Shown: positions 3,324-55,963 of the stretch, piece after piece | Position numbering within the stretch: the stretch's first letter is position 1 | Layout: the number at the start of each line of letters is the position of its first letter | NCBI GenBank assembly: GCA_024698505.1 | Contig: JAILRE010000009.1 | Location: forward strand, 870-64,869 | Direction: 5' to 3' | DNA from: Clostridiales bacterium | GTDB lineage: Bacteria; Bacillota; Clostridia; Christensenellales; CAG-138 | Length of the DNA stretch: 64,000 nt | Notes under the pieces: model-generated | The model's database searches: none | Told to the model about the DNA's origin: nothing | Seen by the model: the letters and a program-made list of their open reading frames with translations, nothing else | Made by a program: the position numbers and the translations under genes

Positions 3324-3352
3324 TTGACATTGCCGCGCGCTTTGTTTATTAT
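3324..3352 (+). promoter_or_regulatory. Candidate promoter for fumC (TTGACA-17-TATTAT)
   Basis: TTGACA at 3324-3329 and TATTAT at 3347-3352. An imperfect hairpin (CTGAAGGCGGGG..CCCCGCGGCTTCAG) follows, just before the RBS. Confidence 0.45.
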
Positions 3353-3414
3353 TTATTAATGAAATAAAAGGGCTGAAGGCGGGGTTTTCCCCGCGGCTTC
3401 AGGGAGAGGATACA

Positions 3415-8460: not shown

Positions 8461-9684
8461 ATGAACAAACACGAAAAGCGAAAGGGAATATTCGCAGCCC
8501 TTGCCGCGCTCTTGTCGGCGCTGCTCCTTTTCGCGTCCTGCAAGCTTACGAATAATGAAGCGAACGCCTCGCAGGAGCCCCGAAACACCGGTACGGCCGC
8601 GGAGCTTCCCGCCGGGGAGCCGACCGAAACCGCGGAGCTTTCCGAAACGGAGCTCCCGGATGATACGGCAGATCCCGCCGCGACCCGGGGCGAAGCTTCC
8701 GAAGCGCCCGCCGTCACGGGCTCTCCCGATGCCTCTTCGGATGCGCCTACCGAAGCTCCCGAAAACACGCCCGCTCCCACGGAGGGGGCGGGGAAAACGG
8801 CTGCTCCCACTGCGGCGCCTACCGCCGCTCCGTCTTCTGCGCCCTCGCAGACCGCCGCGCCTGCGGCGACTCTAACACCGACGGCGACTCTTGCGCCGAC
8901 TCCCGCGCCGACTCCCGCACCGACTGTTGCTCCGACTGTTGCTCCGACTGCGGCTCCGACCGCGGCTCCGACTCCCGCTCCGACTCCCGCGCCTACCGCG
9001 ACGCCGAAGCCGACGAACACTCCCGTTCCCGAGCCCACGCCCGAGCCCTCCTATACTCCGCTTACGGAGGAGGAGCTCTCCCGCCTCGTCAATTTCGAGA
9101 ACCGTCTGCCCGATGATTTCGTCCCGCACGATCTCGTCAAGGCAAAGACGCTTATGGGGGACGCTGCGACCGTCAGGAAGAGCAGCATAAAGATCCAGTA
9201 TGAGGTCGGCCTGCACCTGAAGGAGATGTTCCTCGCCGCTTACGCCGAGGGGATAACCTGCCGCTACCGCATCAACAGCGCGTACCGCACGCAGGAAGCG
9301 CAGTGGAACCTCTGGAACAACAAGCTGGCGAACGATCCCGATTACGGCTCCGATCCGTATAACGATCCCGTCGGCGCAATGCCCGGCAACGCGAGCGAGC
9401 ACTGCGCGGGGCTTGCGGTGGATCTCGCCTCCACCGATTTCCCGCAGGAGGACGCCGCCTTCGGCAGCACGCCGGAGGGGATCTGGCTCCGCGATAACGC
9501 GCACAGGTTCGGCTTCATATTAAGATACCCCGCCGATAAGACGCACGTGACCGGCGTCAAGTGGGAGCCGTGGCATTTCCGCTACGTCGGGACGGAGCTC
9601 GCCCGCCTTATCTATGAGAGCGGCCTCTGCATGGAGGAATACTTCGCGCAGAACGAGCCCGGCATAGGGGAGAGCAGGCCGTAA
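8461..9684 (+). CDS. Lipoprotein D,D-carboxypeptidase, VanY / peptidase M15 family, with a Pro/Thr/Ala linker
   Basis: Lipobox LLFASC, about 190 aa of a PT/PA-rich linker, then M15 motifs (SAYRTQEAQ, SEHCAGLAVDL, WEPWHFRYVG). Confidence 0.85.
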   Translation: MNKHEKRKGIFAALAALLSALLLFASCKLTNNEANASQEPRNTGTAAELPAGEPTETAELSETELPDDTADPAATRGEASEAPAVTGSPDASSDAPTEAPENTPAPTEGAGKTAAPTAAPTAAPSSAPSQTAAPAATLTPTATLAPTPAPTPAPTVAPTVAPTAAPTAAPTPAPTPAPTATPKPTNTPVPEPTPEPSYTPLTEEELSRLVNFENRLPDDFVPHDLVKAKTLMGDAATVRKSSIKIQYEVGLHLKEMFLAAYAEGITCRYRINSAYRTQEAQWNLWNNKLANDPDYGSDPYNDPVGAMPGNASEHCAGLAVDLASTDFPQEDAAFGSTPEGIWLRDNAHRFGFILRYPADKTHVTGVKWEPWHFRYVGTELARLIYESGLCMEEYFAQNEPGIGESRP

Positions 9685-27262: not shown

Positions 27263-27291
27263 TTGACAGAGGGCCGCGTTTCCCTTATAAT
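27263..27291 (+). promoter_or_regulatory. Promoter of the lysine-fermentation operon (TTGACA-17-TATAAT)
   Basis: Both hexamers are exact consensus, immediately upstream of the riboswitch. Confidence 0.7.
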
Positions 27292-27296
27292 AGAAG

Positions 27297-27510
27297 GGTA
27301 GAGGCGCAGGAGGTCAGGTAGCGCGCCGCGCATGGGCTGCGGAGCTTATGCGGCGCGTGAATGGGGCTTCTGCCGAAGGTGTGCTTTATCCGTGAAAGGC
27401 GCATCTGGGCGTACGGCCGAGCGCCGTGCGACTGTCATTGCTTGTCAATGGTGCGCTATTGTTCCGGGCTGCTTTTGTGCGGCCCGCGGACGGGAGCGCC
27501 TTTTTATTTC
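27297..27510 (+). ncRNA. Lysine riboswitch (L-box) aptamer plus a U-tract expression platform
   Basis: L-box core elements in the correct order: AGAGGCGC, CAGGTAGCG, GTGAATGGGGCTTCTGCCGAAGG, TCTGGGCGTACGG, GACTGTCA. A GC-rich hairpin region ending in CCTTTTTATTT (27499-27509) follows. Confidence 0.85.
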
Positions 27511-35800: not shown

Positions 35801-35828
35801 TTGACATTTAGAACAAACGTGTTATAAT
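35801..35828 (+). promoter_or_regulatory. Promoter (TTGACA-16-TATAAT) with an overlapping GAAC-type operator; leaderless configuration
   Basis: AGAACAAACGTGTT at 35810-35823 abuts the -10. The ATG at 35835 is 6 nt after the -10. A second GAACAAACG lies at 35838-35846. Confidence 0.55.
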
Positions 35829-35834
35829 ACAGAT

Positions 35835-37865
35835 ATGGAACAAACGAGCGAAAGAACCTATATCTGCATCGACCTGAAATCCTTCTACGCGTCCGTCGAG
35901 TGCGTGGCGCGCGGGCTGGATCCGCTCGGCGTGAATCTTGTCGTCGCGGATGAGACGAGGACGGAAAAGACGATCTGCCTTGCCGTCTCGCCCTCACTGA
36001 AGGCTTACGGGATATCCGGCAGGGCGCGCCTTTTCGAGGTGGTGCAGAGGGTCGCGGAGCTCAATTCCGACCGCAGGTATGCGGCGAGGGGCAGGAAGCT
36101 CACGGGCTCCTCGTGGGTGGACGCCGAGCTGAAGGCCGATAAGAGCCTCGCGATAGACTATATCGTCGCTCCCCCGCGCATGGCGAAATACATGGCGGTC
36201 AGCACGCAGATCTACAACATCTATTTAAGGTACATCGCGCCGGAGGATATCCACGTCTATTCGGTGGACGAGGTGTTTATCGACGCCACGAATTACGGCA
36301 GGCTCTACCGCATGACCCCGCGCGAGCTGGCGATGAAGATGATAGGGGACGTACTCAATGAGACGGGCATCACGGCGACGGTAGGCATAGGCACGAACAT
36401 GTACCTTGCCAAGATCGCGATGGACATTGACGCGAAGCACATGAAGCCCGACGAGAACGGCGTCCGCATCTCCGAGCTGGACGAGATGAGCTACCGCAGG
36501 CGGCTCTGGTCGCACACGCCGATAACCGATTTCTGGCGGATAGGGAAGGGCATAGCAAGGCGGCTCGACGAATACGGCATACGGACGATGGGGGATATCG
36601 CCCTCTGCTCCGTGGCGGACAAGCGCAGCGCCCTCAACGAGGATTTCCTCTACAAGCTCTTCGGCATAAACGCGGAGCTTCTGATCGACCACGCCTGGGG
36701 GTACGAGCCCTGCACCATGGCGGACGTGAAGGCCTACCGCCCGCGGACGCACAGCCTCAGCCTGGGGCAGGTGCTGAAGGAGCCCTACGAATTCGAAAGG
36801 GCGAGGCTGATAGTGCGGGAGATGGCGGACGACCTCTCGATGGACGTTTTCGCGAAGGGCCTCGTCACCGATCAGGTGGTGCTGACGGTCTGCTACGATA
36901 CGGAAAACGTGCGCGATCCCGAGAGGCGGAGGCGCTACAAGGGCCCCATAGAGGCCGACGGCTACGGCAGGCAGGCGCCCAAGTCCGCCCACGGCTCGTT
37001 CAATCTGCCCATGACCTCCTCGACGAAGCTCTTCACCGAGGGCGCGGTCGCGCTTTTCGACAGGATAGCTGACAGGTCGCTCACGGTAAGGCGGATATAC
37101 GTCGTCGCGAATCATACCGTGCCGAAGGAAGCCCTGCCGAGCGGCCCCGTTTACGAGCAGCTCGATCTTTTCACCGACCCGGAGGAGCAAAAGCGCGCCT
37201 TCGAGAGGGAGCGCTTCGCCCGCGAAAGGGAGGAGCGCCGCCAGGACGCGCTCGTGAAGATACGCGGCAAATTCGGCAAGAACGCCATTCTGAAGGGCAT
37301 GAACTACGAGGAGGGCGCCACCTCGATAGAGCGCAACGGCCAGATAGGCGGCCACCGCGCGGGCGATCCCGAGCAGGGCGGCCAAACGCCGGGAGGCGTA
37401 AAAAAAAACAGTACCGGTGGCACAACGTGCCCCTGTGAATATGAGGAGGACGGCATGAGAAGGGGAGAAGACGCCTACGAGGAGATAATCGGTCTGCCGC
37501 ATCACAAGTCCGCGGAAAGGCCGCATATGTCAAATTACGACAGGGCGGCGCAGTTCGCCCCCTTCGCGGCGCTCACGGGATACGAGGAGGCGGTCTCGGA
37601 AACGGCCCGCCTGACCGAACAAAAGCCCGAGCTGGACGAGGACGAGAAGCAGCTCATAGACGCATGGCTCCGAAGGCTGAGGCAGGATCCCGGCTCGGTG
37701 GATGCGGGCGTGACCTACTTCACGGCCGACAAGCGCAAAAAGGGCGGCGCGATACTTGAATCGAAGGCCGCCGTCGCCGGGATAGACGAACACGCCCGCG
37801 CCGTCGTATTCGAGGACGGAACGAGCGTGCCGATAGACGATATAATCGCCGTGGACGGGGAATGA
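35835..37865 (+). CDS. Y-family DNA polymerase (UmuC/DinB-like) read through into a YolD-like C-terminal module
   Basis: 676 aa. N-terminus ICIDLKSFYASVECVARGLDP, polymerase core to about aa 510, then after the A9 tract an internal SD (GAGGAGGA) plus ATG 37455 and YolD-like HMSNYDRAAQFAPFAALTGYEEAV. Confidence 0.8.
   Translation: MEQTSERTYICIDLKSFYASVECVARGLDPLGVNLVVADETRTEKTICLAVSPSLKAYGISGRARLFEVVQRVAELNSDRRYAARGRKLTGSSWVDAELKADKSLAIDYIVAPPRMAKYMAVSTQIYNIYLRYIAPEDIHVYSVDEVFIDATNYGRLYRMTPRELAMKMIGDVLNETGITATVGIGTNMYLAKIAMDIDAKHMKPDENGVRISELDEMSYRRRLWSHTPITDFWRIGKGIARRLDEYGIRTMGDIALCSVADKRSALNEDFLYKLFGINAELLIDHAWGYEPCTMADVKAYRPRTHSLSLGQVLKEPYEFERARLIVREMADDLSMDVFAKGLVTDQVVLTVCYDTENVRDPERRRRYKGPIEADGYGRQAPKSAHGSFNLPMTSSTKLFTEGAVALFDRIADRSLTVRRIYVVANHTVPKEALPSGPVYEQLDLFTDPEEQKRAFERERFAREREERRQDALVKIRGKFGKNAILKGMNYEEGATSIERNGQIGGHRAGDPEQGGQTPGGVKKNSTGGTTCPCEYEEDGMRRGEDAYEEIIGLPHHKSAERPHMSNYDRAAQFAPFAALTGYEEAVSETARLTEQKPELDEDEKQLIDAWLRRLRQDPGSVDAGVTYFTADKRKKGGAILESKAAVAGIDEHARAVVFEDGTSVPIDDIIAVDGE
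37400..37408 (+). repeat. A9 homopolymer at the polymerase/YolD-like junction
   Basis: Nine consecutive A residues. An A8 version would end the polymerase at the TGA overlapping ATG 37455 (ATGA). Confidence 0.95.
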
Positions 37866-38425: not shown

Positions 38426-38454
38426 TTGACATGCGGCCCTTGCGATGGTATAAT
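38426..38454 (+). promoter_or_regulatory. Promoter (TTGACA-17-TGGTATAAT), leaderless configuration
   Basis: The -10 ends at 38454 and the ATG at 38461 is 6 nt later, with no SD. Confidence 0.55.
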
Positions 38455-38460
38455 GCGGGT

Positions 38461-39018
38461 ATGGAGAACAACGAGTCGAAAAAACGCAAAGGCGTGCTTT
38501 CGCTCACGTTCTGCGCCATAATGGCGGCGCTGGGCGTGGGCATTATCCTCGTGGGCGGGCTGATCGGCGTCGCCACTTACGCCGCGCCGCTCATCGCCTC
38601 GATGTGCCTCATACCCGTCATCTACGAATTCGGCTCGGGCAGGGCGTGGCTCGCCTGGCTCGCGACGGCGCTGCTCGCCGCGCTGCTCTCGGCGGATAAG
38701 GAGGCCGCGGCCTTCTACGTCTTCCTCGGGTACTACCCGATAATCCGCCCCGTTTTCAACAGGATCCGTCCGAGGGCGCTTCGCCTGCTCGTCAAATTCC
38801 TGTATTTCGCGGCGGTCATACTCGCAATGTACGCGCTGCTCTGCTTCGTTGTAAAGCTCGACGCGGTGCTGTACGAGATCTATTCGGAGGCGGCGTGGGT
38901 GAACGTATTGCTCTTCTTCGCGCTCGTCGCCGTCATGCTCCTCTACGACGCGGCGGTGAGGGCGGCGGAGGTCGTCTACCTGAAGCGCATAAGGGACAAG
39001 CTCCGCTTCCTCGGCTGA
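38461..39018 (+). CDS. Hypothetical polytopic membrane protein
   Basis: 185 aa from MENNESKKRKG, with about 5 hydrophobic helices. Confidence 0.6.
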   Translation: MENNESKKRKGVLSLTFCAIMAALGVGIILVGGLIGVATYAAPLIASMCLIPVIYEFGSGRAWLAWLATALLAALLSADKEAAAFYVFLGYYPIIRPVFNRIRPRALRLLVKFLYFAAVILAMYALLCFVVKLDAVLYEIYSEAAWVNVLLFFALVAVMLLYDAAVRAAEVVYLKRIRDKLRFLG

Positions 39019-39037
39019 ACCCGATCTTTTGAAAGCT

Positions 39038-40420
39038 ATGAAGAAATTCATCGGAGACAGGGCGTTTTACCGCAAGCTTTTCGCGGTGATGCTGCCCATA
39101 CTCGTCCAAAACGTAATAACGAATCTCGTCGGCCTGCTGGATAACATAATGGTCGGCAGGCTCGGCACGGAGCAGATGAGCGGCGTTGCGATAGTCAACC
39201 AGCTCATTTTCGTGTTCGCGCTCTGCATATTCGGCGGCATATCAGGCGCGGGCATTTTCACCACGCAGTATTACGGCAAGGGCGACGACGAGGGCGTAAG
39301 GCACACCGTCAGGATCAAGTTCTACATCGTTATCGCGGCGGTGACGCTCTTCGCGCTCGTATTCACGTTCTTCGGCGAAAGGCTCATCTCCTTCTTCCTG
39401 CACGAGGGCAAGGAGAAACTCGATCTGGAGGCGACGCTGGACTTCGGAAAGCAGTACCTCGCCGTAATGATCTGGCAGATGCTCCCGTTCGCCGTGATGC
39501 AGATCTATTCCGGCACGCTCAGGGAAACGGGGGAGACGGTCATCCCGATGGTATCGGGCATAGCCGCGATATTCGTGAACCTCTTCCTCAACTGGGTGCT
39601 GATATTCGGCAAGCTCGGCGCGCCCGCATTGGGCGTCCGCGGCGCGGCGTACGCCACGCTCATCGCAAGGTTCGTGGAGCTCGGCGTCGTCGTGATCTGG
39701 GCGCATACGCACAAGAAGCGCTGCCCCTATATAAAGGGGCTTTACAGCTCGTTCCGAGTGCCCGGCTCGCTCTTGAAAAACGTTGCGATAAAGGGCACGC
39801 CCCTGCTCGTGAACGAGGTGCTCTGGTCGAGCGGAATGACCATGCTGAACCAGTGCTACTCGCGCCGCGGGCTCGAGGTCGTCTCGGCGGTCAACATCTC
39901 GTCGACGGTATCGAACCTCTTCTTCTGCTCGTTCTTCGCAATGGGCTCCACCGTCGCTATAATCGTCGGCCAGCTCCTCGGCGCGGGCGAACACGAGCGG
40001 GCCGTTAGGGAGGACCGCCAGCTCATAGCTTTCTCGGTGTTCCTCTGCACGCTGACGGGCGTCGTCATGGCGGTGCTGGCTCCGCTGATACCCAGGATCT
40101 ACAACACCACGGCAGGCGTAAAGGCGCTCGCCGCGGAGATTCTCATCGTAAGCGCCTGCATGATGCCGATGGACGCCTTCACCAACGCGAGCTACTTCAC
40201 GTTGAGATCCGGAGGCAAGACCTTCATCACGTTCCTGTTTGACAGCGGCTTCGTCTGGTCGATCTGCGTGCCCGCGGCGTTCGTGCTCTCGAGATACACG
40301 AGCGTTCCCATACTGCCGATGTTCATAATCGTGAGATGCCTCGATCTCATCAAATGCGTGATAGGCTATATCCTCATCAAAAAGCGCGCCTGGGTGCACG
40401 ACCTGACGAAAGACCGGTAG
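39038..40420 (+). CDS. MATE-family efflux transporter
   Basis: About 460 aa with 12 predicted helices. N-terminus FYRKLFAVMLPILVQNVITNLVGLLDNIMVGRLG is typical of MATE. Confidence 0.85.
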   Translation: MKKFIGDRAFYRKLFAVMLPILVQNVITNLVGLLDNIMVGRLGTEQMSGVAIVNQLIFVFALCIFGGISGAGIFTTQYYGKGDDEGVRHTVRIKFYIVIAAVTLFALVFTFFGERLISFFLHEGKEKLDLEATLDFGKQYLAVMIWQMLPFAVMQIYSGTLRETGETVIPMVSGIAAIFVNLFLNWVLIFGKLGAPALGVRGAAYATLIARFVELGVVVIWAHTHKKRCPYIKGLYSSFRVPGSLLKNVAIKGTPLLVNEVLWSSGMTMLNQCYSRRGLEVVSAVNISSTVSNLFFCSFFAMGSTVAIIVGQLLGAGEHERAVREDRQLIAFSVFLCTLTGVVMAVLAPLIPRIYNTTAGVKALAAEILIVSACMMPMDAFTNASYFTLRSGGKTFITFLFDSGFVWSICVPAAFVLSRYTSVPILPMFIIVRCLDLIKCVIGYILIKKRAWVHDLTKDR

Positions 40421-40470
40421 AGCGAAATGAATGAATAAGCCCCGACAGGGGCTTATTTTCGTTATACTCC

Positions 40471-40500
40471 TTGACAGCAAACGAACAAATGTGCTATAAT
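40471..40500 (+). promoter_or_regulatory. Promoter (TTGACA-18-TGCTATAAT) with the same GAAC-type operator as the polymerase promoter
   Basis: CGAACAAATGTGCT at 40482-40495, in the same register relative to the -10 as 35810-35823. Confidence 0.55.
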
Positions 40501-40511
40501 ATAATTGTGGG

Positions 40512-40784
40512 GTGAAAAAAGCGAAGCTTGACAACTTAATATCGCATATTATAAATATTGAATCTATAGATGAAATAGAAATTTTTAAAAATTCTTTTTT
40601 CTATAGGATCATTCTATTATTGATTCTATTATTCATTCTATCATTCATTCTATTATTCAATCTGTTTTATCTATGGTTTGTTCTATGTTTCATTCTATTG
40701 TTCATTCTATGTTTCATTCTATTATTCATTCTGTGTTTCGTTCTATACTATGCTTTTGATACTCCGTGGGGATATGAGGGATAA
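40512..40784 (+). CDS. Putative small hydrophobic protein (90 aa, GTG start) built from 12-nt repeats; coding status uncertain
   Basis: ORF MKKAKLDNLISHIINIESIDEIEIFKNSFFYRIILLLILLFILSFILLF.. About 25% GC, atypical codons (ATT, ATA, CTA, TTA), no clear SD. Confidence 0.35.
   Translation: MKKAKLDNLISHIINIESIDEIEIFKNSFFYRIILLLILLFILSFILLFNLFYLWFVLCFILLFILCFILLFILCFVLYYAFDTPWGYEG
40612..40752 (+). repeat. About twelve tandem copies of a 12-nt unit (TTCTATNNTTCA-like)
   Basis: TTCTAT/TTCTGT starts at 40612, 40624, 40636, 40648, 40660, then 40681, 40693, 40705, 40717, 40729, 40741. Confidence 0.9.
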
Positions 40785-40812
40785 GGAACGGGGAACCGAA
40801 AAAACGATAGGG

Positions 40813-40842
40813 CTTGACAAGCCGATATAAGTGTGTTAATAT
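40813..40842 (+). promoter_or_regulatory. Candidate promoter for the VanZ-like gene
   Basis: TTGACA at 40813-40818 and TGTGTTAATAT about 17-18 nt downstream. Confidence 0.45.
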
Positions 40843-40876
40843 TGTTAGTACAGTAACGAACGGGATACGAAGGGAT

Positions 40877-41383
40877 ATGCAAATGAAGAGAAGCTCCAAA
40901 GCGTTTACGACAGCGGTGTTCGCCGTTTATATGATACTGCTCGTCTGGCTCGTGATGTTCAAGCTGGAGACGGATATTTCCCTGCTCTCGCGGTACAGGA
41001 GGGTGCTGCTGATCCCGTTTTGCCGCCCGGGATCTTCGAGCCTCCGCTTCGAGGCGGGGGAGATGCTTTTGAACCTGTTCGCGTTCATGCCGCTCGGGTA
41101 CTGGCTCGCCATGCTGGACTTTCCGAAAAAGCCGTGGGCGAGGACGCTTGCGGCGTTCTGCCTCAGCCTGCTCCTCGAGACGCTGCAGTACTTGTTTTTC
41201 CTCGGCACCTCCGACGTGACGGACCTTATCCTGAACACGCTCGGAGCTGTGCTGGGCGGGCTCGCGTTCAAAGGAGCGAAGCGGCTTATGGGGGAGAGGG
41301 CCGAAAAGGTCTCGAACGCTGCGGGGCTCTGCGTGATGCTGTTTCTGACAGCCGCCTGGGCGTTCCTGAACCTGATGAACTGA
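40877..41383 (+). CDS. VanZ-family membrane protein
   Basis: MQMKRSSKAFTTAVFAVYMILLVWLV, then LNLFAFMPLGYWL and GTSDVTDLILNTLGAVLG. Confidence 0.75.
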   Translation: MQMKRSSKAFTTAVFAVYMILLVWLVMFKLETDISLLSRYRRVLLIPFCRPGSSSLRFEAGEMLLNLFAFMPLGYWLAMLDFPKKPWARTLAAFCLSLLLETLQYLFFLGTSDVTDLILNTLGAVLGGLAFKGAKRLMGERAEKVSNAAGLCVMLFLTAAWAFLNLMN

Positions 41384-54001: not shown

Positions 54002-54880
54002 ATGGCAGTTCTCATAAACGGGACCGAATTGGCAAAAAAGGTCAAGGCCGAGGTGCGGCTCGGGGCGGAGGCGATGGTCGAAGCCCTGGGCGAAGAGGCA
54101 AGGCCCGATATGACGCTCATCGTTTTTGAGGGGGACCCCGTCTCAAGGAGCCTCGTCGCCATGAAGGCGCGCGACTGCGAGGCCGCGGGCATAGTCCCCA
54201 CGGTCGTCGAACTGCCGGACGAGACGACGGAGGAGGAGCTTTTCGCCCTCATCGAAAGGCTCAACGCGGATGAGAAAGTCACCGCGATACTCTGCCAGCT
54301 TCCCGTGCCGCCCCACGTAAGCACGAAAAAGCTCTTGAACCTCATTTCCCCCGAAAAGGACGTCGACGGCTTCTCCGCAAGGCTTGACGGCGATATTACG
54401 GACTTAGCCGCCTGCACCCCCGCGGGAGTGATCCGCATGCTGGACGAGTACGGCATAGAGGTCGCGGGGAAGCACTGCGTCGTCGTAGGGCGGAGCAATA
54501 TCGTCGGCAAGCCCATGGCGGCCCAGCTCCTCATGCGGGACGCGACCGTGACCGTCTGCCACAGCAAAACGCGCGATCTCGCCTCCTTTACGAGGCAGGC
54601 GGACGTGCTGATAGTCGCGGCCGGCCATGCGGGGCTCATAACGGCGGACATGGTGAAGGACGGCGCGGCCGTCATCGACGTGGGCATGAACTACGTCGAG
54701 GGCAGGCTCGCGGGCGACGTCGATTTCGAGGGCGTCTCCCAAAAGGCCGCGTTCATATCGCCCGTTCCCGGCGGCGTCGGCCCCATGACGAGAGCATACC
54801 TGCTCAAAAACGCCCTCAGGCTCTCCGCGGAAAAGCACGGGATGGGGGGGACGGCTGTTGGGTCTCGCCCGAATGAATAA
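54002..54880 (+). CDS. folD: Bifunctional 5,10-methylene-THF dehydrogenase / methenyl-THF cyclohydrolase
   Basis: MAVLINGTELAKKVK, VVVGRSNIVGKPMA and PVPGGVGPMT. A GTG at 53996 is an alternative start. Confidence 0.9.
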   Translation: MAVLINGTELAKKVKAEVRLGAEAMVEALGEEARPDMTLIVFEGDPVSRSLVAMKARDCEAAGIVPTVVELPDETTEEELFALIERLNADEKVTAILCQLPVPPHVSTKKLLNLISPEKDVDGFSARLDGDITDLAACTPAGVIRMLDEYGIEVAGKHCVVVGRSNIVGKPMAAQLLMRDATVTVCHSKTRDLASFTRQADVLIVAAGHAGLITADMVKDGAAVIDVGMNYVEGRLAGDVDFEGVSQKAAFISPVPGGVGPMTRAYLLKNALRLSAEKHGMGGTAVGSRPNE

Positions 54881-54894
54881 CGAAATACATCAAG

Positions 54895-54925: not shown

Positions 54926-54954
54926 TTGACATAGGAACGGAGGTGTTATATAAT
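54926..54954 (+). promoter_or_regulatory. Promoter (TTGACA-17-TATAAT) of the low-GC gene
   Basis: Both hexamers are exact consensus, with a 76-nt AT-rich leader to the ATG at 55031. Confidence 0.65.
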
Positions 54955-55030: not shown

Positions 55031-55963
55031 ATGATTTACGGATACGATACAAGTGAGAAGATAAAAAGCGATGCAAAGCTGAATGTGTTGAAATATTCCG
55101 GTCCTTATGGGAAGGGTGCTTTTATCGGCAGATATTTGACGAATGCACCGTCAGGAGAAGACAAATGCTTGGAATATGATGAAGTTAAATTTTTGTCCGA
55201 CAACGATATTAATATTGTATCCATATTTGAAACGTACGGAGGGCCGTTGTCGTATTTTACTATGGCAAGAGGGATATCCGACGCGAGAGCTTCGGTTGCT
55301 GCTGCAACTGATTTAGGTCAGCCAAGTGGGAAACCTATTTATTTTGCGGTCGACATTCCTATATATGTGGATAATCAGAACCAAGTCCAAGCAATTTGGG
55401 AATATTTTGTTGGTGTTTCCCAAATACTGTCTGATTCGAATGAGAACCCACACGGGTACACACTTGGTGTGTATGGATGTGAAGGCACATGCTTAACGGT
55501 TAGAGCAGTATATCCTAATGCGTATACAATGCAGTGTAATCCCAAAACCAATGGCTCATTTAGTGATTGGAACTTAGATCAATCACAATACAATAATGGA
55601 AATCCGATATGGTATAATGGTGTTGCAGTGACAATTGATGTTGTCACTGCGCAAAATGGTAATTATGGCGGATGGAAGCATACGCATACATATCCTTCTA
55701 ATTGGACGCCAAGCTCTGACGGCATACATCACCACAAGCATTGTACAAATTGTGGCTTTGTTCTGAAAAAAAAGCATTCTTTTCCCAGCGCATGGAGCAA
55801 CTACGGGAATGCAAAAAAGCACAGGAAGGCGTGTACAGCCTGTGGAGCATACAAATATGAGCCCCATTCTCCAAATGCCGTAGGAACAAAATGCACGAAG
55901 TGCGGATATGAAGGCAATATCATCCTGCCTTCGGCAACAGACGGGGAGGACAGCAATGAATGA
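55031..55963 (+). CDS. DUF1906 (Rv2525c-like glycoside-hydrolase-like) protein with three C-terminal CxxC zinc-ribbon-like units; no signal peptide
   Basis: 310 aa. RBS AAAGGAGGAG. YGYDTS, FIGRYL, IVSIFE, IYFAVD and GVYG motifs. HKHCTNCG, RKACTACG and TKCTKCG. About 40% GC. Confidence 0.65.
   Translation: MIYGYDTSEKIKSDAKLNVLKYSGPYGKGAFIGRYLTNAPSGEDKCLEYDEVKFLSDNDINIVSIFETYGGPLSYFTMARGISDARASVAAATDLGQPSGKPIYFAVDIPIYVDNQNQVQAIWEYFVGVSQILSDSNENPHGYTLGVYGCEGTCLTVRAVYPNAYTMQCNPKTNGSFSDWNLDQSQYNNGNPIWYNGVAVTIDVVTAQNGNYGGWKHTHTYPSNWTPSSDGIHHHKHCTNCGFVLKKKHSFPSAWSNYGNAKKHRKACTACGAYKYEPHSPNAVGTKCTKCGYEGNIILPSATDGEDSNE

Follow-up and report, generated by a model that had tools for sequence, protein, structure and literature searches.

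The question raised by this locus is what occupies the gap between a MATE efflux gene and a VanZ-like gene in the GC-rich genome of a rumen Clostridiales bacterium. In a 64,000-nucleotide stretch of that genome (GenBank assembly GCA_024698505.1, contig JAILRE010000009.1, positions 870 to 64,869 of the forward strand; hereafter the window), the G+C fraction (GC) falls to 0.17–0.26 at 40500–40750 as compared with 0.55–0.65 in the flanks (100-nt windows), and the lowest-GC 300-nt bin of the whole window is 40501–40800 (0.283). An earlier note on this DNA had described the drop, which is borne out, and had read the island as an open reading frame (ORF) built of 12-nt tandem repeats behind the same operator as an SOS-type polymerase. 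A horizontally acquired, DNA damage-induced small membrane peptide was preferred there over an array of phased protein-binding sites or an RNA gene. The features of that description were all recovered in their places.

The combined data identify positions 40421–40808 as an insertion whose architecture is kept in a second genome: a hairpin, a strong promoter overlapped by an operator-like box, and a T-rich body with a long open frame and a period-3 T pattern. The box recurs in three promoters of the window. We tentatively regard the element as a fast-evolving gene for a small membrane peptide, restricted to its lineage and governed by a LexA-type operator, a reading to which we give slightly less than an even chance.

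The insertion and its counterpart in a second genome

The upstream neighbour of the element is the MATE gene (39029–40420, forward strand, stop codon TAG at 40418–40420; NCBI MCR5808205.1) and the downstream neighbour is the gene of a VanZ-like membrane protein (40883–41383, forward strand; Pfam VanZ, E = 2.3e-20; MCR5808206.1). When species-representative genomes were scanned with the MATE protein, 44 loci of uncultured rumen and gut Clostridia/Oscillospiraceae were obtained at up to 81% identity, and the AT-rich island downstream of MATE was absent in all 44. MATE and VanZ lie 20–55 bp apart in four relatives, where alignments place the MATE stop 5–55 nt from the conserved TTGACA of the VanZ promoter, the interval being otherwise empty. 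Two of these (L004 and L005) keep the gene order polymerase, 195-aa protein, MATE, VanZ, with ~20 nt from the MATE stop to the VanZ promoter; in the other two (L067 and L068, 82–83% identity) the MATE–VanZ gaps are 45 and 54 bp. As the gaps of the relatives are short, the window has ~390 extra bases (40421–40808, forward strand), reaching from the MATE stop to the conserved VanZ promoter, and this segment is an insertion relative to the relatives. Its right boundary is the VanZ promoter itself (TTGACA-17-TAATAT, 40814–40842, forward strand), which is kept in six genomes.

Only one closer MATE protein was present in the protein database (P0002, 90% identity). Its contig, L066, belongs to an independent Logan assembly (SRR33675027) and has a MATE–VanZ gap of 645 bp, with a homologous element at the same site. 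The order of parts in L066 is hairpin with T-run, promoter, box, 5′ block, T-rich body, G+C-rich tail and VanZ promoter. The hairpin differs in sequence and stands with its T-run at the equivalent position, the promoter reads TTGACG-18-TATAAT with the box CGAACGAATGTGC, and the body is again T-rich (15–25% GC) and made of tandem repeats. Since both lineages have the element at this site, the insertion dates back to their common ancestor, and recovery of the element in an independent assembly rules out an assembly artefact. Among the loci examined, the element is restricted to these two genomes.

Comparison of the two copies revealed a sharp division between conserved and replaced parts. The promoter block is identical at 45 of 56 positions, with one change in the –35 hexamer (TTGACA versus TTGACG) and with the –10 and positions +1 to +9 kept, while the coding flanks show 81% (3′ end of MATE) and 76% (VanZ) identity. 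The box shows a single difference, in the spacer, where a purine is retained. Conversely, the alignment of the bodies scores barely above shuffled sequence (151 versus 131 ± 8), and conservation is confined to the promoter, the first ~40 nt and the VanZ-proximal end. On this alignment the promoter is judged to be selectively retained.

The insert boundaries show neither a target-site duplication nor terminal inverted repeats. A blast of the insert against the remainder of the window gave only chance matches of 11–13 nt, ruling out a multicopy element or a miniature inverted-repeat transposable element in the window; blastn against phage and plasmid collections gave no match, and a scan of viral contigs with the promoter/box block gave 0 matches. 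Thus, of the proposed horizontal acquisition, the insertion relative to relatives stands, while a donor or homologue was not found in any collection searched.

The left part of the insert holds a G+C-rich hairpin, AATAAGCCCC-GACA-GGGGCTTATT followed by TTTT (40434–40457, forward strand; inverted repeat I9, arms 100% complementary), which is assigned as terminator of the MATE gene. The terminator scan scores this hairpin as terminator-like on the minus strand; the T-run on the forward strand was read by eye. At the other end, conservation of the VanZ promoter region (40814–40860) in the window, L004, L005, L066, L067 and L068 continues well past the hexamers (TTGACAA..CGATATAAGTGTGTTAATAT..AATACAGTAA). 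As the conservation in these six genomes exceeds the hexamers, it suggests that the VanZ promoter may have an operator of its own.

The promoter and its operator-like box

The promoter of the element, P1, which the earlier note had described, matches the consensus at 12 of 12 positions (TTGACA-18-TATAAT with a TG-extended –10, 40471–40500, forward strand) and carries CGAACAAATGTGCT at 40482–40495 on the same strand. This putative operator overlaps the spacer and the extended –10 TG, and resembles the LexA-binding Cheo box. Written as CGAAC-AAAT-GTGC-T, it scores 12/14 against the Firmicute Cheo box CGAACRNRYGTTYC (GAAC-N4-GTTC/T), departing at the third position of the right half, and it is identical at 10 of 12 positions to the recA operator of Clostridioides difficile, GAACAAATGTTT, a sequence bound by LexA in vitro (PMC4234289). 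As in the clostridial and Bacillus boxes, the left half CGAAC is perfect, the box sits over the core promoter, and the RNRY spacer is kept in the three boxes that read GAAC-[AG]AA[TC] (P1, its L066 counterpart and the polymerase promoter described below).

The motif connects P1 with two further promoters. The core GAACAAAYGTGY is found in the window only at 40483 (P1) and at 35811, in the promoter of a Y-family polymerase gene 4.6 kb upstream of the element (TTGACA-TTTA-GAACAAACGTGT-TATAAT-N6-ATG, 35801–35837, forward strand). Y-family polymerases represent a classical SOS function. The suggestion that both genes stand behind the same operator is thus correct for GAACAAAYGTGY and TATAAT, which they have in common, and overstated for the full 14-mer, which is not matched. 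Across the window, GAAC-N4-GTGY directly 5′ of the –10 occurs in 3 of 18 strong promoter-like sites, namely those of the polymerase, of P1 and of an endolysin-like gene; in ~450 kb of related loci this arrangement is absent save in the L066 element. The motif as such is over-represented in the window (8 occurrences at 9017, 31121, 35811, 37819, 40296, 40483, 45175 and 54935, compared with 2.7 expected), and none of 100 shuffles reached 8.

The third boxed promoter (TTGACA-TAG-GAACGGAGGTGT-TATATAAT, 54926–54954, forward strand, box at 54935) lies upstream of a low-GC endolysin-like gene (55031–55963, forward strand) with an Rv2525c-like glycoside-hydrolase domain. The 310-aa product lacks a signal, has a Cys/His-rich C-terminus and shows a match to an endolysin PHROG (E = 1.5e-13). 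With a GC of 0.39 at third codon positions, as compared with ~0.8 in its neighbours, the gene gives the impression of another foreign gene behind this box. The statement that nothing in the window explains the element is to be amended on two counts, as the third boxed promoter drives this endolysin-like gene and as the element has no terminator before VanZ (see below).

The assignment to LexA meets several objections. The right half, GTGC or GTGT, has G where every listed clostridial LexA site has T, and the canonical clostridial form GAAC-N4-GTTY is absent from the window (0 versus 3.3 expected). Orthologous polymerase promoters in L003 and L004 are without the box. Moreover, lexA, recA and uvr genes are absent among the window genes scanned, so the motif is without calibration. 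In balance, LexA control of P1 appears somewhat more probable than its absence. For the SOS-type control proposed before, this means that a Cheo-box-like motif is in place, with a right half that departs from clostridial sites. Possible sites of the CodY, Fur and response-regulator types, noticed by eye in the AT-rich DNA, were dropped, being expected by composition and not conserved in L066.

Downstream of P1, two short segments are retained between the loci. A 5′ block at the predicted transcript start, GTGGGGTGA (GTGAGGTGA in L066; 40507–40515, forward strand), was identified by alignment; its conserved GTGRGGTGA resembles the Shine–Dalgarno (SD) consensus of Firmicutes. We infer any role of this block from its sequence. 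A second conserved block, GAAGCTTGACA.. (40524–40544, forward strand), follows in the 5′ transcribed region. It is overlapped by a promoter-like TTGACA-16-TATAAA at 40528–40555 (11/12), of which the –10 is not kept in L066.

Two side observations concern the genes that share the box. The Y-family polymerase (35835–37865) comprises 676 aa; its IMS domains end near residue 433, and the C-terminal extension of ~240 residues is without a Pfam match and conserved in L003 and L004. Furthermore, the 10-mer GAATGAATAA stands at 40429–40438 and at 54872–54881, in each case just 5′ of a terminator hairpin that precedes one of the two low-GC modules. It places a stop codon in each of the three frames and corresponds, as reverse complement, to a part of the repeat unit, and coincidence is possible.

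The repeat-built reading frame

The body of the element is dominated by a 12-nt tandem array (40609–40746, forward strand) in two blocks with a 9-nt offset, encoding ILLF, ILSF and ILCF quartets. Tandem Repeats Finder reports a period of 12, 10.6–11.8 copies, 76–79% matches and the consensus TCATTCTAT(T/G)(A/T)T, and TTCTAT stands in register at 40612+12k and 40681+12k, confirming the phasing noticed before. With up to one mismatch, TTCATTCTAT occurs 9 times in the element and 13 times in the window, as compared with 2.0 expected. In L066 the window unit TCATTCTATKWT is replaced by TTGTTATTGTTC and by 6-, 9-, 18- and 24-nt repeats, the units there being TTGTTATTGTTC and TATCATTTT. All repeat periods scoring at least 39 are multiples of 3 (12 and 24 in the window; 6, 9, 12, 18 and 24 in L066), whereas one window repeat with a score of 34 has a period of 8. 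The array is preceded by an AT-rich imperfect palindrome, also claimed earlier and located here at 40559–40611 (no strand assigned; inverted repeats I3 and I6). Its arms are 76% (40559–40575/40595–40611) and 80% (40572–40586/40587–40601) complementary, and it includes two copies of CTATAG(A/G). The palindrome is absent in L066, which is ~50 nt shorter there.

A scan of metagenomes with ATTCTATNNTTCATTCTATNNTTCATTCTAT gave 21 loci (L045–L065), near-perfect minisatellites on contigs of low GC (17–47%). These were rejected as relatives, having neither the promoter nor the MATE/VanZ context, and are not homologous. The 12-bp minisatellite unit TTCATTCTATNN occurs on marine, freshwater and soil contigs, several of them eukaryote- or giant-virus-like.

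A 90-codon ORF runs through the array from GTG 40512 to 40784 (forward strand). It comprises a polar head (residues 1–32), an uncharged I/L/F body (33–82) and a polar tail (83–90) that ends …YYAFDTPWGYEG. Start, length and sequence agree with the earlier note; the claim that this is the only long frame rests on the ~32 non-repeat codons of the head, and another frame contains a further ORF, of 50 aa, at 40678–40830. In L066 the long sense frame starts at TTG (2365–2607) and encodes 80 aa. The layouts of the two predicted products correspond, with heads of 32 (window) and 17 aa (L066), uncharged I/L/V/F bodies of ~50 aa in both, and polar tails of 8 and 13 aa.

The compositional signature of the body is in line with translation. 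Of the 51 body codons of L066, 90% have T at position 2, also where the sequence lies outside the 12-mer array, and the periodogram of T has its peak at exactly 3.0; the corresponding fraction in the window body is 74%. Other AT-rich islands in related loci reach fractions of 0.32–0.47 at this position. Such islands (e.g. L015, 2171–2430) were considered as counterparts and rejected as ordinary intergenic DNA without T-phase or box. Tested against dinucleotide shuffles of the AT-rich parts, the longest open frame has P = 0.006–0.009 in the window and 0.017 in L066. Period-3 composition, repeat periods and a 9-nt offset that preserve the frame, and an ORF longer than chance are thus present, as generic coding criteria would have it. 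A single-sequence AlphaFold2 model of the 90-aa product shows helices at 2–18 and 27–83 (mean predicted local distance difference test score, pLDDT, 84.6), which fits a helical hydrophobic peptide and does not distinguish a single long helix from a hairpin. The comparison of synonymous and non-synonymous changes between repeat units, proposed earlier, was run as well: the variable dinucleotide falls on codon positions 2–3 and gives L/S/C/Y/W changes, which is uninformative on selection.

A considerable set of observations weighs against a translated peptide. All three forward frames are open across the repeats. Once T stands at every third base, a stop-free frame is automatic, so that the length of the ORF adds no independent evidence. 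For the non-repeat head, 9% of dinucleotide shuffles leave at least one frame open. Neither start nor frame is conserved: the window frame through GAAGCTTGACA meets a TGA in L066, whose TTG ORF uses another frame. GTG 40512 is ~5 nt away from where the transcript is predicted to start, and an SD at working distance is lacking. The codon usage is extreme, with a codon-adaptation-index-like value of 0.15, as compared with 0.60–0.75 in host genes, and with CTA used 10 times in the ORF and 0 times in ~2,000 codons of five host genes. The 90-aa and 80-aa products show no detectable similarity to each other. For the 90-aa product, a word-indexed search of 5.8 billion protein clusters gave nothing at E ≤ 10, and full HMMER against 1.84 billion representatives gave no homologue; the one match, P0121 (E = 4e-4), was rejected as a eukaryote-like low-complexity repeat protein. 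The ORF has no Pfam, NCBIfam, PHROG or PADLOC match, and exact-product look-ups for window proteins did not find the encoding contigs. Finally, the NCBI accessions of MATE and VanZ are consecutive, so that no coding sequence is annotated between them. Among the generic coding criteria, an SD-led or leaderless 5′ AUG start, a frame shared with relatives, and homologues are therefore lacking. In summary, the small membrane peptide proposed in the earlier note gains from the promoter, box and polar-head/50-residue-body ORF that L066 keeps despite its replaced repeats, and loses from the absence of a conserved start, frame or SD.

A possible way out of the missing-start problem is offered by the geometry of the 5′ block, which in itself can be read as a mini-ORF, GTG-GGG-TGA, with a stop that overlaps GTG 40512. 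The spacing of –10 plus N6 puts GTG 40507 at the position held by the ATG in the polymerase gene (35835) and in the 195-aa gene (38461), a leaderless geometry. In both loci this GTG begins an ORF of two codons, the TGA of which shares bases with the following start (GTGA); several overlaps of this kind (GTGA, ATGA, TTGA), read from the sequence, succeed one another in L066 and run into the long ORF.

The same geometry was observed elsewhere in the window. The ATG falls exactly 7 nt after the last T of the –10 in the polymerase gene (TATAAT-ACAGAT-ATG, 35823–35837) and in the gene of the 195-aa membrane protein (TATAAT-GCGGGT-ATG, 38449–38463), and these two cases suggest the use of leaderless mRNAs in this organism. 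The true start of the 195-aa ORF is probably 38461, since the listed start, 38431, precedes the –10. At 3324–3365, a strong promoter-like TTGACA-17-TATTAT is followed by N6 and then by ATG AAA TAA, a two-codon mini-ORF geometry resembling that at 40507.

Proposed function, alternatives and implications

According to the reading we favour, the young ~390-bp insertion would be a self-contained expression module. It would consist of a terminator closing the upstream MATE gene, a consensus sigma-A promoter with its spacer and extended –10 under the Cheo-box-like operator (CGAAC-AAAT-GTGC), the short conserved 5′ block, and a ~250-nt T-rich body made by in-frame expansion of 12-nt repeats. Without induction, the promoter would be occluded by a LexA-type repressor sitting on the box; upon DNA damage, derepression would allow strong transcription of a U-rich transcript. 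The body would most likely be translated into a membrane peptide of extreme hydrophobicity, with a polar head in the cytoplasm, ~50 uncharged residues, sufficient for a two-pass hairpin, and a short tail. Selection would act on composition, hydrophobicity and length of the peptide, and its exact sequence would matter little. The peptide may be membrane-active in a toxin-, holin- or division inhibitor-like manner. The transcript would also read on into VanZ, as there is no forward-strand terminator between promoter and VanZ in either locus, and would supply extra VanZ mRNA.

Comparison with known systems places such a peptide near three groups. The element is not classed with any of these, as it departs from toxins in size and antitoxin, from division inhibitors in topology and lexA adjacency, and from holins in charged tail and endolysin adjacency. 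With the Escherichia coli pairs tisB/istR-1 and dinQ/agrB it has in common that the promoter of a small, very hydrophobic ORF is overlapped by a box of LexA type (TisB is under LexA control, PMC13159721) and that the locus is chromosomal, lineage-restricted and unannotated by standard pipelines. Type I toxins are hydrophobic, typically shorter than 60 aa, and have one transmembrane helix (PMC11264685), whereas the ORFs of the element span 80–90 aa with ~50 hydrophobic residues. No convincing antitoxin small RNA (sRNA) is present: each locus has only a 9/12 antisense promoter-like site, ATGATA-17-AATAAT (40644→40616; 2492→2464 in L066), in DNA where such matches are expected, and the hairpin 40457→40434, terminator-like on the minus strand, was considered in this context. 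In contrast to the E. coli toxins, with which it has no sequence similarity, the element has a body built of tandem repeats and a Gram-positive host of the Clostridia. Homology to known toxin families was found neither in Pfam, NCBIfam, PADLOC and PHROGs nor in the protein databases.

The SOS-induced division inhibitors YneA, SosA and SidA of Gram-positive bacteria and Caulobacter are small membrane proteins that evolve fast, lack homology to one another and are induced when LexA is cleaved (PMC6851548, PMC13396833, PMC6051672), and the proposed element would resemble them as a small, fast-evolving membrane protein under LexA. They have a single N-terminal transmembrane helix plus an extracellular domain and are usually encoded beside lexA, divergently from it in the YneA/SosA type, whereas the element has a polar head and a long C-terminal hydrophobic part, and no lexA-like gene is present among the window genes scanned. 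For class II phage holins with two transmembrane spans, the resemblance lies in the size range (65–95 aa), in two potential spans, and in the endolysin-like gene of the window having the same promoter box. The body is long enough for two spans, while AlphaFold2 models one 57-residue helix. Differences are the lack of a PHROG holin match and of a prophage context, and a tail that is not strongly charged (net –2 in the window, +2 in L066), where holins have a charged, hydrophilic C-terminus. There is no adjacent lysis cassette either, as the neighbours are MATE and VanZ and the endolysin-like gene at 55031 is 14 kb away. A more specific scenario, which we hold to be improbable, would join these threads. 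A recently born gene (de novo or heavily remodelled), with a hydrophobic domain rebuilt by in-frame T-rich 12-nt repeats under the variant operator GAAC-N4-GTGY, would provide the membrane-permeabilising partner of the 55031 endolysin-like enzyme in a split chromosomal lysis or release module triggered by DNA damage.

The main alternative, a serious rival although regarded as unlikely, is a non-coding transcribed U-rich leader by which the insert gives VanZ a second strong, repressor-controlled promoter, the ORF being incidental. The transcript might be stabilised by its 5′ SD-like GUGRGGUGA, or might act as a Rho- or UTP-sensitive attenuator. The scan found no forward-strand terminator-like site at 40500–41041, i.e. 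before VanZ, and none lies between promoter and VanZ in L066; given this absence, read-through from P1 would be expected to reach VanZ. A leader would also explain why conservation is confined to the promoter, the first ~40 nt and the VanZ-proximal end, why start and frame are unconserved, with no SD at working distance and very poor codon adaptation, and why the 5′ block fits the SD consensus of Firmicutes although no conserved start codon follows it. Still, a leader needs neither T at every third base over ~150 nt nor repeat periods in multiples of 3, and no polar-head/50-residue-body/polar-tail layout shared by both loci. The C>G skew expected for Rho loading is seen in the window and not in L066, RNA structure is neither stable nor conserved, and VanZ has its own conserved promoter 60 nt downstream.

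Quite unlikely is a functionless young insertion, in which low-GC DNA or a triplet-based minisatellite beside a promoter drifts by repeat turnover and the ORFs are by-products. The restriction to two genomes, the complete turnover of the body between them, and the lack of homologues in the collections searched are what such drift would leave behind, and the same 10-mer unit makes ordinary minisatellites in unrelated low-GC metagenome contigs. Set against this, promoter, box and 5′ block are kept near the level of the coding flanks (80% versus 76–81%), firing of a 12/12 promoter into junk would be costly, openness of the ORF and T-phase persist through the non-repeat parts of both loci, and the box is common to two further genes.

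An array of phased sites, one TTCTAT per 12 bp, for a sequence-specific DNA-binding protein is highly improbable: the regular spacing and the inverted motif copies (ATAGA) inside the palindrome 40559–40611 agree with it, yet the motif is not enriched in the window outside the array, the 12-bp period is off the phase of the helical repeat, and L066 has no TTCTAT array, the replacement of the unit by TTGTTATTGTTC and TATCATTTT being the point that weakens this earlier proposal. A structured RNA gene or base-pairing sRNA, also proposed before, deserves as little credence: a strong promoter without an obvious SD-led ORF would suit it, yet 40300–41000 has no Rfam match (best E 1.1–7.8, far below gathering scores), the whole transcript folds with z-scores of –1.26 (forward) and +0.10 (reverse), the 5′ and 3′ parts show no structure in either locus (z about 0), a terminator is missing and the body sequence is not conserved. 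At the gathering threshold, Rfam yields a single match in the window, a lysine riboswitch (RF00168) at 27291–27466 (76.9 bits).

As a small hydrophobic ORF under an SOS-type box, the proposed gene belongs to a known kind; what is uncommon, as seen in only two loci, is a hydrophobic domain that is built of repeats and rapidly replaced. If the peptide is made, the locus would be a clear case of a bacterial membrane-protein gene with a functional domain generated by repeat expansion, swapped wholesale between sister species while architecture, promoter and operator were kept, and it would bear on the origin of small toxin-like genes and on their escape from annotation. If it is untranslated, the locus still documents a young insertion that rewires VanZ with a strong, repressible promoter. 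The GAAC-N4-GTGY box common to the three promoters points to a variant operator of SOS type in uncultured rumen Oscillospiraceae-like Clostridia, which would link a translesion polymerase, the element (together with VanZ via read-through) and an endolysin-like enzyme.

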